From: Yuukianura sp. NJ FZ-2021
Taxonomy: Eukaryota
Length of the DNA stretch: 64,000 nucleotides
Assembly (NCBI GenBank): GCA_046563655.1
Contig: CM102286.1
Coordinates: 496,001 to 560,000, forward strand
Direction: 5' to 3'
The notes beneath the pieces were generated by a model. It searched no databases. It had not been told where the DNA came from and saw only the letters and a program-made list of their open reading frames with translations. Below, one piece after another: positions 36,320 through 64,000 of this stretch (positions are counted from its first letter, which is position 1; every line of letters starts with the position of its first letter). Position numbers and translations under genes: made by a program.

Positions 36320-46108
<9,789 letters not shown>

Positions 46109-51015: not shown

Positions 51016-51669
51016 TTAGAAAATGAAAACTGCAACTGATGCTTTATAAAATTTTGTGTCAATTTCAAATTCGATAGCAAAAGTACTGATTTTTGTAACC
51101 TCGTTCCAAATAGTAGACAAGAACAAAAGCAGGGATCAAAATTCTCTAAAAATTTTCCTCTTTTTGTATTGTGAAGTTTGAATTTGACATTACATTGTAG
51201 CTGTCAAGTATGTGCTTGTGCATATTTTTTCAACAAAAACATGTTTTCTTTTTTGAAAAGCACAATTTTGTAAGCATATCAAACAGTAATCAATATTTCA
51301 AAATTTCAGTTAATAGTGGAGCGTGTCAATGTGAGTGGTTGTGGTCAGCGCTTTAACATAACATGTTTTTGTGTGCGGTTTTGTTGAAGAGGCCTCACCT
51401 CAAAAACTTAATTAAAATTAAACAAGAACAATTAAATTAACGCAAGAAGATGCCTGTAATTAAACTCTAAAATATGCAATCTAACAAGAAAATTAAAGTT
51501 TTACCGCAGACTTAAGTGCTCGCAAGTTCGGTATTTGACCAAAACTGATAAATTTTTAAAATTTACGAACTTATAAATATGGTTCTGTGTCAATTATTAA
51601 TCACAAACCTCACACTATCAAACTTGAGCGTTTCTTAAATTTAAAATTTAAAAAACATCACATACAACT

Positions 51670-54600
51670 ATGGTCTACCCAACTTATTCCGTAAAAAACG
51701 TTTACCATTTGAATTCATGTTTTTTGTTTGTTTTCCAAAATAAAGGAAGTTTTACAGTGGCGGCCAAAATTATTGGGACACCCAGTGTAAAAATTTTTAA
51801 ACAACGATAACTTTTTAACGAAGTGTCATAATTAATAACTCGATACGTCATTTTATTCAGAAAATAGTTCTTTCCAATCTCCCAAGTTTTTAGAACTTGA
51901 AGTCAAACGGTTTATTTTATGGAATTTTTTAAACTCAAAACGTCAAAATTCTCGCGGTCAAAATTATTGGGACAGCTGGGGTTTTGGAACGAAATCAACA
52001 GTTATTGGCATTAGTCTTCCATCGGTAAGTCACCTAACTTAATTTTTAGTACTTACTAACACTTGTAGTTAATTGTTGATTAGTTTTTCAGAGATGGTTG
52101 GCAATATCAAGGAAGTTCCAGGACCGATACGCGACCTAATCATTCAAGGTTGGGTTGGTGACGAAAATGGTACAAAATCAGTTCGTCAGCTGTCCGAATT
52201 GTACCACGTACCCAAGTCAACAGTACATAGCATCATACAAAGGTACCTCAAGACCGGTCATGTCGAAAACAAAGTCGGAAGGGGCCGTAAACCAATTCTT
52301 ACTGAGAGGGAAGTTCGCCTGATCACCAAGAAAGTGAAGCTGGACAATCGAGTAAGCGCCGTAGAACTGTCCAAAACACTCAAAAATGACCTTGACACGA
52401 AGTGAGCCGAATTTATCCATAATTCCGTTAATAAATTCCAAGGTTCCAGCCCCGTTTGTAGCCATGCAGCCCCAAACCATGACACTGCCTCCTCCGTGTT
52501 TCACAGTCACATTGAGGTTCTTTGGTTTTAAGGCTTCACCAATACCTCTTCGGACATATTTTCGTCCATCTGACCCCAAAACGTTGACCTTTGACTCGTC
52601 CGACAATAAAATTCTTTCCCAAAACGATACCGGCTTCATAAAGTGTTCTTTTGCAAACTTCAATCTCTTGGCTGCATTCTTCTTTGACACAAACGGTTTT
52701 CGCAACGGCTTGAAAGCTCTCAAATTCTGATTGCAAAGTACTCTTTGAACAGTACGGGGGCTGACTTCGGTGTCAAGGTCACTTTTGAGTGTTTTGGACA
52801 GTTCTACGGCGCTTACTCGATTGTCCAGCTTCACTTTCTTGGTGATCAGGCGAACTTCCCTCTCAGTAAGAATTGGTTTACGGCCCCTTCCGACTTTGTT
52901 TTCGACATGACCGGTCTTGAGGTACCTTTGTATGATGCTATGTACTGTTGACTTGGGTACGTGGTACAATTCGGACAGCTGACGAACTGATTTTGTACCA
53001 TTTTCGTCACCAACCCAACCTTGAATGATTAGGTCGCGTATCGGTCCTGGAACTTCCTTGATATTGCCAACCATCTCTGAAAAACTAATCAACAATTAAC
53101 TACAAGTGTTAGTAAGTACTAAAAATTAAGTTAGGTGACTTACCGATGGAAGACTAATGCCAATAACTGTTGATTTCGTTCCAAAACCCCAGCTGTCCCA
53201 ATAATTTTGACCGCGAGAATTTTGACGTTTTGAGTTTAAAAAATTCCATAAAATAAACCGCTTGACTTTAAGTTCTAAAAACTTGGGAGATTGAAAAGAA
53301 CTATTTTCTGAATAAAATGACGTATCGAGTTATTAATTATGACACTTCGTTAAAAAGTTATCGTTGTTTAAAAATTTTTACACTGGGTGTCCCAATAATT
53401 TTGGCCGCCACTGTAAATCTTGAATTTCCTATTTTTTGTTTTTGGATTTTAGTATGGCGATCCAGAACTCGAGGCCAAAACGAACTTGCGCAGCCGGTAC
53501 GGACAGGCTCAAGACTACAACACGATCTTGAGCCAGGGTGGCGTTTTTGAAGATCCGGAATTCCCGCATGAGCAGAGCAGTGTTGGCGACATTGATGAAC
53601 TACTGGACACTGCAAATCCAAGTGGGGCCGCCATGGTGGCGAAGTGGAGATATCAGGGGTGGGATGGGACTGCGAAGTGGCTCCGGGTCAAGGTAAGACC
53701 ATGCTGGCTGACCTATGGAAATGACCCACAGGTCAAAGACCTTTCCAAGTGGCGAAGAGGTTAATGACCTTTATGATTGTTGGCAACATTCCCATTGCTT
53801 ATCGTCAAGGACGAGGTTGCATGGAAGTGCTGAGCTGAGATATCCGCTCCATCCTAAGATAGTGTTGGAAGGAGCCGATAGCTCTTTCCGTTAGAGCAGT
53901 TCCCGGATTGAAGAGATATGGGTGCGAATCCCACTCGGTTCTGATATTTTTCCACACTATTTCCACTCCGTCCTCACCTCATGCCATATGAGCCCCCTTA
54001 AACTCCGAACATTTTTTTTCAGGATTTGTGTAGAATCAAGTATGGCGAATGGTACGGTTACGAGGCAGTGTTTACGCGGGAGAAGATTGGTGAGGAGTCC
54101 GGTCGCATGGACATTAAGCAAGGGCGAACGGGGGATTGCTGGTTTCTTTGCGCAGTTTCAGCGGTTTGTAGCGTCAAGAGCGTCATTGAGCAGGTCGTAT
54201 CGGATGATAACCATGACAACGACGTAGGAGTTTACCACTTCAGGTGCAACTGCTTACGATTTGTCAACCTAAATACCTTATCTAGCATATATAACTATAG
54301 TTATTTAATACCATAATATTTATATTATATTTATTTGTATATTTATGTATTATAATTCAAAATTTATTTGTGGATTAGGTTTTGGCATCTGGGGTGCTGG
54401 GTGGACATTGTCGTAGATGACTATGTCCCGGTATACGTCGTTGGCAGTCAGCACACCACTGCTGGTTCAGACTTCAACATAAACGGTCGGTCAGCCGAGT
54501 TCTGGCCGATGCTTCTGGAGAAAGCATACGCAAAGTAAGTGTAAGCTAGATTAATTAATTAATTAATTAATTAATACTTTATGTTAAATTAAATATGAAA

Positions 54601-60438: not shown

Positions 60439-61004
60439 ACAAGGCATTCCTATGATTCTCAATTTATTTACACACGTTTTTCCATGAAAAATTATGTTCC
60501 CATCCACCTAAGTTTTACTTTATGGACATCCTGAACATGTTGCAAAGTAATGTCAATTAGGTTTTAGATTAAAGTTATTGTTAGTTTTTCTGCACCACAC
60601 ACTTAAACTTGTTCCCCGTTAAGGCCGTCACACTCTTGACTTGTGTAACAAGGGTTTGATATAGGTTTCTTGTGATATCCGTAATTTATTTATATGTAAT
60701 TGAAATTTTGGCGGTCAATTTTGAAATGGATGAGTAATTGAGTCCCTTAACCTTTACTACCGTCGACACTGAAGTATGCCGATTAAATTATAAAGTAGTT
60801 GAGATTTCGGCATGTCAAAAAGCGGTGATGCGAACAATGTAATTTGTGTGAACTATTTAATAAAAATGGTGTAGGAGTTGATTCAAATTTTGGTTGGCTT
60901 AAGGTTTTCCGATCGTTATTTAAACCGCAGTGTAGCCATGCGGTCATCTTGTTTGGCTACAGCTGAGTGGCAACATTTGCAGCCACTCTAACTTAAAAAA
61001 AAAC

Positions 61005-64000
61005 CTACCCTAAAGTGGCAACAATGGCGTAAACCTTGGTCGATTGCGGATCTAGAAATTGTTTAAAGTGAGCCACTGCTCGTAGCCACTTTTTTGAGGT
61101 TTGCCACGTCGATTCAAACGTCTGGACTGTCAGTGTAAGTGCAATTCCAAAGGCGTAAATGTAAAATATAGTTTGAATGCTGTCGTGTAGGCTAATTGGT
61201 TTTACCGCCATGACGGTGCTGTTGAGTTGCTCCTTGAGCGTGAACTGCGTGCGATTTGGTCCATGTACAAGAAATATCGTGGTCAACCACTGGTAAATTC
61301 CGGTTTCAACCAGTGTCCGAAAATAGTACGGTACTTTGGAACCTCCATAATTTGAAAACTGCCAAACCCTGAAGTTATCCAAGATTCGGCTCTTTCCAAG
61401 TCTAAAATGAATTCCTTTATAATAACGTTGTAAGTACTCTAGCTCTTGTAGTACGCGCCTCGCCGTTTCGACGTAGGCTGTACGTCCACACTGCACAATA
61501 ATCCTCTCCACGGCGCTATCATATGGAATCGGACTTGTCAATTGTTCGTTCTTGCCTAGATGTGTCCAAGGAGGCGGATGTCGGCACTTGAAAGGATGCA
61601 GCAAGTTCCAAAACAGTTTGTCATCCGGGTATGGCGGTTGGAGTGTTGCATTTGAACTCCAGTCAGTTCTGCGCATGAACATTCTCTCTTCATTCCTCAA
61701 CAGCATTTGATTGAACCTTGTGTACTGAACTATACCATCCGTACCATCATGAGTTTCATCTGGATCTTGACCGTACAACCGAAACTCAGTTGCATTGGGT
61801 TCAGTAATTTGTCTCGCATAAAATGTTTCCCAATAGAAGTGTAGCGAAACGTTGTACGATGAATGTGTTTCGTCATAGAAATCTGTGAAATTTGTGACAG
61901 ATTTCCTAGGCAACGGAGCTGTAATTGACGTAACGGCTATTCCTTTATATCCATTCGTGAACAGAATTCCAGCAAGAAGCCATCCGCATAGACCAATACG
62001 AAAAAAGTTGTGTCTTTCCAGTGTTAGTGGAATTTTAGCCGATTGTTCCAATATACTTGATAACATAAAGAGGTATGACGAAAAGTGAGTTGCTGCAATT
62101 CCAACAGTGTTGGTGGATATACACTTTTTCAACATATCGTCCACGGCTGGATATCCAGTGGAAGAAATGGATGAAACCAAAGGGACGGAGGCTTGCCGGC
62201 GGAGTTTAAGTAAATTGAATTAAAAACACCGGAAAAACTCAAATAACTTTAAATAAATTTCAAAAAGAAAGGCAGTATTATTTTTTCAGTTTTTTTTATA
62301 ACAAAACGATGCAAAGTGCGTTTTGAAAACATTTTGTAATTTCAAATTTGAATGTTTTCAATTTCTCACAAAATTTTTAATTTCTTCCGTCTGCTGAAAG
62401 TTTCGTCGAGTAGGGACAGGGACACATTTGTTCCTTCCCGTGGATATCGACTGGCATGTTTAAGTATCCACCAACACTGTATTCGCATTAGCCGAGTGGT
62501 AATGTCTCCAAGAATCGCCAAGCCACAAATTTGAATAGAAATTGCAGTCCAAAGTTTAGGTTGAAATGGTGTAATGTAGTATTCAAAGGACAGGAAAGGT
62601 TTTGAATAGCATGTTAAGAATATGTACTCATCTTGTTCTACTGGGACAACCGTTGTATCCGGAGTGATGTGAAATATGCAGGGATGAGTTGCAGAGAAAG
62701 TAGGGTAAATTCCAGCTGGATTTTCAGTGAAAAGATTCAGTTCTGCGACATACGTTGGGTTGAACCTTGCTTCCTTGAGGATGACTCCGTAGTGTTTAAA
62801 CGAAACAGGTTTTGTAGTTGCATTCCCTTTGGCTAGCAGCAGGTTCAAGATGAAGTGTTGGAATACCTGGTGACCCCACGCCCACATTTTGGCTGGATTA
62901 GCAGTTTTTTGCACTATGTTGGCATTCCATTGGTATTCAACTTCTTTCACCTCTTGATGCCTCGTTCGCATCCATACCTTTCCGGAATTCTCAACAGAGA
63001 ATAGGCTCTGAAAGCTGAAGTCATTGAAAAGCGCTGAAGGCTCAACCTGTAAACGAACAATTAGTATGTACCTCGCAATTATTTTTCTCTTTTGATACCA
63101 TTATTGTCCTCCTATGTCCATCGTAGCTGTCCATCGTCCATCTAACCGCTCTCATTTTACAAACTCACCAAAAATTCTGAAAGGCGGATTTGGAATCAAA
63201 TTACATCACCAAAGGTATCGGCAAGGTAAATAGAATAGTATATTTTCAAACACCATCACATCGTCTAACGTTCTACAGGAGGAATTTGGAAAAAGTGACG
63301 ATTATAGGCTGAGAAATTCACTAAAGTGTAACTTCCTTATTTATGACAAATTCAAATTTTCCAAAATATTGTTTTTCTCAAATACCACCATACCATCTAA
63401 CTTTCTACAGGAGGCATTTGGAAAAAGTCACGATTAGGCTGAGAAATTCACTAAAGTGTAACTTCCTTATTTATGACAAATTGAAATTTTCCAAAATATT
63501 GTTTTTCTCAAATACCACCATACCATCTAACTTTCTACAGGAGGCATTTGGAAAAAGTCACGATTAGGCTGAGAAATTCACTGAGGTGTAACTTCCTTAT
63601 TTATGACAAATTGAAATTTTCCAAAATATTGTTTTTCTCAAATACCACCATACCATCTAACTTTCTACAGGAGGCATTTGGAAAAAGTCACGATTAGGCT
63701 GAGAAATTCACTAAAGTGTAACTTCCTTATTCACGACAAATTCAAATTTTCCAAAATATTTAAAAAAAAAAATAATAATAAATCAAAATCAAAAAAATTA
63801 AATCAAATAAATCGAAAAATTAATCAACAATAAGGAAAACGTTATTAATTCAGGGTTCAAGAGGTTAAGTAACCCAATGCTCTCTTACCTGCCACATCGA
63901 AGGAGGTTCGCATTTCGGGCAAGCTGCAAATCCTGTGGATTTTCTTTCCAAATCTCTGATGTTATTTTTGACATGGAGGTTCCAGTTTTCACTGAATATT
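61005..64000 (-). CDS. Divergent ionotropic-receptor-like membrane protein, 5' end outside the window, interrupted by a MITE (possible pseudogene)
   Basis: Open exon 64000-63889 splices in frame to 63046. Motifs FLTCY...YITPFQPKLW + TM, WLLAGILFTNGYKG, LVETGIY, then a final TM resemble divergent IR/iGluR topology. Confidence 0.6.
62105..62479. mobile_element. hAT-type MITE inserted in the IR-like coding exon
   Basis: Perfect 15-bp TIR cagtgttggtggata / tatccaccaacactg. Decayed 8-bp TSD aattccaa / tattcgca. Same termini as 14796-14987. Confidence 0.85.
63255..63760. repeat. 130-bp tandem repeat (about 3.9 copies) in the IR-like intron
   Basis: gaggcatttg recurs at 63411, 63541 and 63671, with a divergent first copy near 63280. 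Confidence 0.95.

Follow-up and report, generated by a model that had tools for sequence, protein, structure and literature searches.

The 64,000-nt stretch of contig CM102286.1 analysed here (positions 496,001 to 560,000 of the forward strand; hereafter the window) carries a Tc1-like transposon of the inverted repeat/direct repeat (IR/DR) type at 51755-53413. The element is 1659 bp long and lies just upstream of the recognisable exons of a divergent calpain gene on the + strand. Its left 654 bp (+) are an inverted copy of its right 655 bp around a 350-bp loop, and this arrangement, together with its origin and its possible effects on related transposons, is the subject of this study.

In the repeat search, the one dominant inverted repeat fell on this element, with arms (51747-52398 and 52770-53421) that are 652 nt long, ungapped, 99% complementary and 371 nt apart. 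Blastn with one 1-base gap aligned 51755-52408 with 53413-52759 over 655 columns at 99.08%, leaving the loop at 52409-52758. Chance cannot account for an arm repeat of such length and identity. The arms differ inside the element by four substitutions (51874/53294, 51899/53269, 51907/53261 and 52386/52782), and near the join by a 1-base indel and one mismatch, both in the final 10 bp of the arm. The original prediction, made from the letters of the window, had described an inverted copy of ~654 bp with a 350-bp loop, few differences between the arms, and IR/DR and TA kept on both ends; repeat search and blastn recovered the first two features, and the termini described below agree with the third.

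At the left end TA is followed by CAGTG... (51753-51759), and at the right end ...CACTG is followed by TA (53409-53415). The dinucleotides at 51753-4 and 53414-5 correspond to the TA target-site duplication of Tc1/mariner elements, and empty alleles hold a single TA. Each arm contains two direct repeats (DRs) of 21 nt, 95% alike and spaced by 194 bp, which is the IR/DR layout. The inverted repeats (IRs) are extended by an inverted subterminal duplication, and the 654/655-bp arms take in leader and coding sequence. No second copy of the element was found by blastn within the window, no tandem array was detected by TRF inside 51755-53413, where the arms are unique transposon sequence, and no Rfam family was found on the element. 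The features are collected in Table 1.

Table 1. Coordinates of the long-inverted-repeat element and of the adjoining calpain exons in the window
Feature	Position	Strand	Basis
Candidate first coding exon of calpain, ATG and 6 codons, then GTAAAA	51670..51690	+	inferred only; next exon has no start codon
Left TA target-site duplication	51753..51754		sequence; empty-site contigs with one TA only
Left arm, element positions 1-654: IR with two DRs, 5' leader, transposase codons 1-101, then 2 divergent codons and stop	51755..52408	+	blastn, 99.08% to inverted right arm
Outer direct repeat of left IR (putative transposase binding site)	51760..51780	+	repeat search
Inner direct repeat of left IR	51954..51974	+	repeat search; inner edge 51974 (mirror 53194) is the divergence point of other family forms in read contigs
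103-aa ORF, N-terminal paired-like HTH fragment of transposase	52094..52405	+	ORF list, Pfam
Rearrangement junction, left-arm end joined to - strand element position 1005	52408..52409		blastn; contigs X2 record 10 and X4 record 29
Loop of 350 bp, element positions 656-1005, transposase codons ~106-222 including first catalytic D	52409..52758	-	blastn, alignment
Right arm, element positions 1-655	52759..53413	-	repeat search, blastn
285-aa ORF: residues 1-222 (53074-52409) transposase, last 63 aa read-through into inverted left arm	52217..53074	-	ORF list, Pfam, alignment
Inner direct repeat of right IR	53194..53214	-	repeat search
Outer direct repeat of right IR	53388..53408	-	repeat search
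Right TA target-site duplication	53414..53415		sequence, read contigs
Calpain exon after acceptor ...TTTTAG (53447-53452), conserved FEDPEFP region, 3' end approximate	53453..53640	+	open frame; tblastn of P0227 to 53471-53584, E 0.006

Two open reading frames (ORFs), one of 103 aa on the + strand (52094-52405) and one of 285 aa on the - strand (53074-52217), both begin at the transposase ATG. The - strand carries element positions 1-1005 and the + strand positions 1-654, and the 3' third of the transposase gene is lost. The - strand product has a bipartite paired-like helix-turn-helix (HTH) DNA-binding domain, with matches to HTH_Tnp_Tc3_2 (E 3.6e-17, 62.8 bits against a cut-off of 31.5) and HTH_32 (34.9 bits against 33.7), and no Pfam match to DDE_3 was obtained in the 285-aa product. 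The matches of the 103-aa ORF to HTH_SB (E 8.4e-06) and HTH_32 (E 2.9e-05) both lie under the Pfam curated cut-offs. In an alignment (A1) with seven Tc1-like relatives of 337-347 aa and 46-53% identity, of which P0003 is C-terminally truncated, the fragment covers residues 1-222 of a DD34E transposase of ~346 aa. D159 is kept, and the transposase frame is left after residue 222, ahead of the two blocks of the relatives (FQQDNDPKH and NPIEHLW) in which the second D and the E stand with 34 residues between them, so that D159 alone of the DDE triad is present. All six full-length homologues (6/6) likewise align by tblastn only to about residue 222. The best protein relatives have 51-54% identity and include Logan and ENA contigs and a Folsomia 'Tcb1' entry, the top one being P0005 with 54%. 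Judged from its reading frames, the copy is a non-autonomous derivative; the original prediction had likewise described truncated products only, namely a 103-aa DNA-binding fragment (+) and a transposase without the last two catalytic residues (-).

Logan contigs from four public runs were compared with 51300-53900; three of these runs (X1-X3) come from one sample, filed as organism A in study P1, and the fourth (X4) is filed as organism B in study P2. The join at 52408/52409 occurs in both studies. Record 29 of X4 (431 nt, 52369-52799, 2 differences) crosses the join and the whole loop at a depth of 130.2, compared with 3.5-5.5 for the single-copy flank contigs of that run, and record 10 of X2 (52369-52489, 1 difference) crosses it at a depth of 155.6, with flank contigs at 9.45-36.6. 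Among the records listed, no junction-crossing contig came from X1 or X3. Over the element, binned depths reach hundreds to thousands in all four runs (4/4), and flank bins range from ~1 to 264 overall. The junction, for further copies of which the original prediction had suggested a search, stands in the read contigs of X2 and X4 well above flank depth.

Palindromic joins are a known class of artefact in long-read libraries, and the structure could in principle be a fold-back chimera or the collapse of two neighbouring copies, the more so as no listed contig covers the whole stretch. However, k-mer contigs from both studies (X2 record 10 and X4 record 29) contain the junction, with 1-2 differences, and both flank-to-element junctions of the filled site are supported by X2 (record 9, 51410-51780; record 15, 53388-53900). 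An assembly artefact is largely refuted by these contigs, and we regard it as extremely unlikely. A pair of independent head-to-head insertions was also ruled out, the join being away from the element ends and common to many copies.

The insertion is polymorphic. In X4 an empty allele passes from 51744 to 53414 via 10 letters that re-create the flank with a single TA, and in X1 another, of depth 66.1, runs from 51752 to 53414 and has the TA in common; a divergent empty haplotype (~5% different) in X1 and X3 passes from 51709 to 53441. By contig depth, the filled allele looks like the minority. Fourteen loose contig ends were listed, and eight of these lie at the element termini (51746-51752 or 53416-53420), where the adjoining letters are all different. 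That the eight flanks are all distinct implies at least four further insertion sites. Junction depths, rough as they are, the eight flanks and the polymorphism together indicate multiple dispersed copies with the same internal structure, and the family is many-copy when the depths are read only as 'many copies'. The same junction in many copies in two studies, many flanks and single-TA empty alleles show that the family was moved by transposase supplied in trans. Such mobilisation in trans, raised as a possibility when the element was first noticed, is strongly supported. We therefore consider it likely, with good confidence, that the locus is a recent, polymorphic insertion of a long-inverted-repeat, non-autonomous Tc1-like family.

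Of the four arm mismatches, at least three (51907, 53269 and 53294) are private to the window copy, and the majority contigs have the base that restores pairing; hence, in the family the two arms are complementary essentially throughout. The junction contigs appear to share the indel and the mismatch next to the join, which is consistent with a single founding event; none of the listed contig rows touches 52399-52408, with 33 rows and one of the two differences of X4 record 29 outside the listing. In the inner direct repeat, at 51958 and 53210, both arms of the window copy have T and the majority contigs of all covering runs have A, which suggests a subfamily or homogenisation between arms. 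Outside the element, at 51300-51710 and 53441-53900, the contigs of one sample hold haplotypes ~5% apart with indels (e.g. 15 nt after 51439), and this spread, together with the minority filled allele, points to a pooled or very heterozygous sample. In X4 the loop is 99.5% identical to the window and the flank ~94%; horizontal transfer between organisms A and B is not claimed from this difference, as haplotypes within one sample (S1) are also ~5% apart.

As part of the same reading, and with the same good confidence, the founder of the family was rebuilt once, so that element positions 1-1005 are followed by an inverted copy of positions 1-654. By this rearrangement the inverted repeats would have been lengthened from ~220 bp to ~654 bp. 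The event may have been a gap repair that followed excision and was aborted: the strand under synthesis on one IR would switch to the identical other IR, a switch that IRs of ~220 bp would allow. Copying would then run on into the 5' region for 434 further bases, and end joining at 52408/52409 would close the product, with small errors beside the join. A proposal of this kind exists for the origin of Goblin, where, as set out in passages of PMC3814204, a gap-repair strand newly copied from one terminal inverted repeat (TIR) switches to the other TIR, copies the subterminal region in inverted orientation and is end-joined. Passages of the same article (Yang et al. 2013, PMC3814204) also name Tc1/mariner derivatives with unexpectedly long TIRs or whole-element hairpins, including Milord, Cele1/2, CeleTc1/Tc7, Tc6 and others. 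By analogy with Goblin, the template-switch gap-repair model fits the present element. Fold-back priming at the break was considered as another route and provisionally set aside, no inverted microhomology being visible at 52408/52409 as far as the rearranged copy alone allows a judgement.

Other forms of the family give some indication of the parent. In X1 and in X2, a single contig at about single-copy depth (68.7 and 53.9) connects 52409 with 53194 on opposite strands, and a contig of X3 has at least 255 unrelated letters ahead of 53194. This position is the inner edge of the inner direct repeat. Since other forms branch there, only the outer ~220 bp are common to their arm and to the arm described here, and a parent with IRs of ~220 bp would fit these sequences; with no parent in hand, the hints on its IR length are the DR layout and the branching of other forms exactly at 53194. 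The joint of 52409 with 53194 may belong to a deletion derivative of 1225 bp that has this breakpoint too or, should letters between its two sides be missing from the contig table, to the 3' half of a full-length parent. In wider searches, the DR pattern gave 0 matches in metagenome contigs and 0 in viral contigs. Prokaryote genomes searched with a 16-mer gave at least 120 bacterial loci, and these are chance matches (best blastn extension 53 columns at 81%, tblastn none).

Several points weigh against the reading of a mobile family descended from one rebuilt founder. X1-X3 are possibly the source sample of the window assembly, which leaves X4 alone as independent, and contig depths are not copy numbers and vary widely between runs of the same sample. 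No single listed contig covers the whole element at 51755-53413, and the internal structure at the window locus rests on the assembly together with the family-wide junction. Moreover, the joint of 52409 with 53194 shares the 52409 breakpoint, which leaves open a two-step origin via a 1225-bp deletion derivative. Finally, a full-length parent was not found, the nearest protein match being P0005 at 54%.

A family whose arms are nearly perfect complements may have effects at the RNA level. The predicted minimum free energies of the element are -1274.9 (+) and -1301.5 (-) kcal/mol, compared with -376 to -397 kcal/mol for five shuffles, and the predicted fold contains 641-643 pairs on the palindrome diagonal, a stem of ~640 bp that holds for the whole putative intron too. 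In the transposase mRNA, the leader and the first ~105 codons correspond to the arms. Each arm further holds the complete region upstream of the ATG, and on this layout convergent self-transcription from the two 5' regions would be conceivable. A transcript through the element, whether host pre-mRNA or its own, would fold into the ~640-bp stem, which in an arthropod would be a plausible Dicer-2 substrate and could feed the small interfering RNA (siRNA) pathway, with the 5' third of the transposase mRNA as target. In addition, the DNA-binding fragments of 103 and 222 aa and the eight binding sites per copy could damp the autonomous parent. Both effects are plausible as side effects and are not demonstrated functions. 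Silencing in particular we put forward tentatively, as a possible side effect and not as the explanation of the feature, and because the family spread and this insertion is young, any damping did not prevent transposition.

The original prediction had compared the element with maize Mu killer, in which part of the MuDR transposase gene is duplicated in inverted orientation, with a read-through hairpin as described in passages of PMC3440606. In that explanation the window copy would be a unique, locus-specific silencer, and a calpain read-through hairpin would give siRNAs that heritably silence the Tc1 family. The comparable inverted duplication, which spans the 5' leader and ~105 transposase codons, agrees with it, as do the very stable predicted stem and the probable position of the element in a transcribed calpain intron, on the sense strand. 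However, the junction is multi-copy in two studies and hence not locus-specific, the insertion is polymorphic and seemingly a minority allele by depth, and hence no fixed controlling locus, and the hairpin family itself went on transposing. A silencer unique to this locus is therefore very unlikely, and the analogy is weakened, although dsRNA may still form: the partial inverted duplication stands, and the single-locus character gives way to a dispersed multi-copy family whose transposition was not stopped by the hairpin.

The same hairpin could instead act through the whole family. Each copy would then be a hairpin-RNA gene, transcribed by host read-through or from its two convergent 5' regions, and its siRNAs would limit the autonomous parent. 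This feedback would draw on the complete 5' region in both arms, the long predicted stem and the many dispersed copies. Moreover, passages of PMC3878927 report Tc1-derived siRNAs and RNA interference (RNAi) control of Tc1 in C. elegans, as well as promoter activity of the Sleeping Beauty IR, and endo-siRNAs from long hairpins in Drosophila are cited in PMC12076837. On the other hand, many copies and a recent insertion mean that such feedback is at best incomplete, and in Aedes, according to PMC12076837, the siRNA pathway has a limited effect on the expression of transposable elements. We consider family-wide feedback unlikely. A related and quite doubtful idea is that the family is an animal counterpart of Mu killer that is mobile and multi-copy, in which each copy would be a self-contained hairpin-RNA gene against its parent and would spread by the very transposase that it silences. 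If this were true, it would be an intrinsic negative feedback that caps the family, seen while still segregating.

Damping may also be exerted by protein or by the DNA of the element. KP-type repressors are a precedent for dominant-negative transposase fragments, and the 103-aa and 222-aa fragments could act in that manner while the eight binding sites per copy soak up transposase. Both ORFs are intact from the transposase ATG and HTH domains are detected in their products, but the 103-aa fragment scores under the Pfam cut-offs, and the intactness of the ORFs is explicable by the youth of the copy. An AATAAA (52430-52435, +) lies 25 nt past the 103-aa ORF's stop codon, where it could terminate a short mRNA that encodes the DNA-binding fragment or bring about premature polyadenylation in the calpain intron. 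Overproduction inhibition of Tc1/mariner transposases, as reported in passages of PMC3878927, also speaks for an effect of this type. As an account of the element, protein-level or titration damping is improbable in our judgement.

The host gene has calpain exons from 53453 to ~55910 on the + strand (tblastn E down to 8e-24, best database identity 54%). The exon at 53453 opens right after an in-frame stop and the ...TTTTAG acceptor, with no Met before FEDPEFP, so an upstream coding exon is needed. The element therefore probably sits in the first intron of this gene. With the candidate exon at 51670-51690 ahead of it, the putative intron would be 1762 nt long and would have been ~101 nt before insertion, and the element ends 37 bp upstream of the acceptor. 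The earlier placing inside a host intron thus stands as probable by the logic of the sequence (the acceptor and the Met-less exon). A DYRK1A/minibrain-like kinase gene lies upstream of calpain and an Hsp70-family gene downstream; a - strand ORF upstream of calpain reads by eye as pyridoxamine-phosphate-oxidase-like. The best 120 protein matches of the kinase exon are 94-97% identical to it, those with names being all from insects, and by these matches the host is an arthropod, probably an insect.

Further signals were observed in and around this gene. In the leader of the element (52024-52091 on the + strand, mirror ~53077-53144 on the - strand), a consensus donor GGTAAGT (52024) and an acceptor TTTTTCAG (ending at 52091) stand 66 nt apart, just upstream of the transposase ATG. 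The pair may be a 5'-untranslated-region intron of the transposon, and on the + strand its members could act as cryptic splice sites in calpain pre-mRNA. In a calpain intron, 53872-53942 (+) matches the tRNA family of Rfam marginally, with 30 bits against a gathering score of 29, but ARAGORN finds no tRNA there, and a similar tRNA-like translation motif occurs at ~44330-44420, near 44.4 kb; the 53.9-kb and 44.4-kb stretches are probably copies of a tRNA-derived short interspersed element. A contig of X4 departs from the window sequence at 53883, and at 53.9 kb the copy may be polymorphic. The stretch 60614-60754 (-), which lies downstream of the Hsp70-family gene, resembles the C-terminal 48 residues of Tc1-like transposases weakly in tblastn (E 0.006, 29% identity) and may be a decayed remnant of another Tc1-like element. 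Repeated translated units at 39858-40200 and 63234-63833 imply tandem repeats with periods of ~62 nt and ~130-160 nt.

It is seldom that the origin of long-inverted-repeat or foldback DNA transposons from ordinary elements is seen while the coding sequence of the parent can still be read. In the present case there is hardly any decay in the junction, the duplicated 5' region and the truncated ORFs, and polymorphism persists in the family, which provides a clear natural example for the template-switch gap-repair model. The element is also a tractable system in which to ask whether, in arthropods, RNAi against autonomous parents is fed by their hairpin-forming non-autonomous derivatives. Genome annotators are cautioned by it that such elements resemble unique 'killer' loci when one window alone is viewed.

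Sleeping Beauty, Minos, S and Paris are Tc1-like elements of the IR/DR type. Bari, according to passages of PMC4877112, is an IR/DR-type element with long IRs. The present element shares with all of these the TA target, ends of ~220 bp bounded by two DRs, a paired-like HTH N-terminus and DD34E homologues, whereas they are autonomous, with a complete transposase and IRs of ~230-260 bp, and it has repeats of 654 bp and the first catalytic D alone. With 1659 bp and ORFs of 103 and 285 aa, it is neither miniature nor non-coding, and differs from miniature inverted-repeat transposable elements, which are usually below ~600-800 bp as stated in the same passages (PMC4877112).

Drosophila Foldback (FB) elements have long inverted repeats built of tandem subrepeats, and an FB-type element was ruled out here, as TRF found no tandem subrepeats. 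In SOS splicing (Zhao et al., Nature 2025, PMC12779559), DNA transposons are spliced from mRNAs on paired inverted terminal repeats in C. elegans and human cells, and according to that report Tc1 copies in introns are not acted upon. Base-paired transposon repeats inside a host transcript are a likeness to its substrates, but an intronic copy would be removed by the ordinary spliceosome anyway.

As in Mu killer, there is a partial inverted duplication of a transposase gene with two terminal repeats, and a long hairpin RNA would be expected if it were read through from the neighbouring gene. Mu killer (Muk) is, however, a single non-mobile locus with demonstrated siRNAs and heritable silencing, whereas the present family is dispersed, recently mobile, from an animal and of a different superfamily, and its hairpin RNA is predicted.

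Tc7 of C. elegans is reportedly 'a Tc1-hitch hiking transposon'. In common with Tc7 and with Goblin of Aedes aegypti, which derives from Ozma according to passages of PMC3814204, the element keeps the parental termini and TA, has no working transposase, contains the subterminal region twice in inverted orientation, is multi-copy and moved in trans, and has inverted repeats that are probably far longer than those of the parent. Unlike them, it is much larger at 1659 bp, as long as a full element and not miniature, and its duplication includes the transposase 5' leader and DNA-binding codons, so that two truncated ORFs survive and the hairpin is homologous to transposase mRNA. With these features, the element qualifies as a long-TIR non-autonomous Tc1-like derivative, an already known kind.

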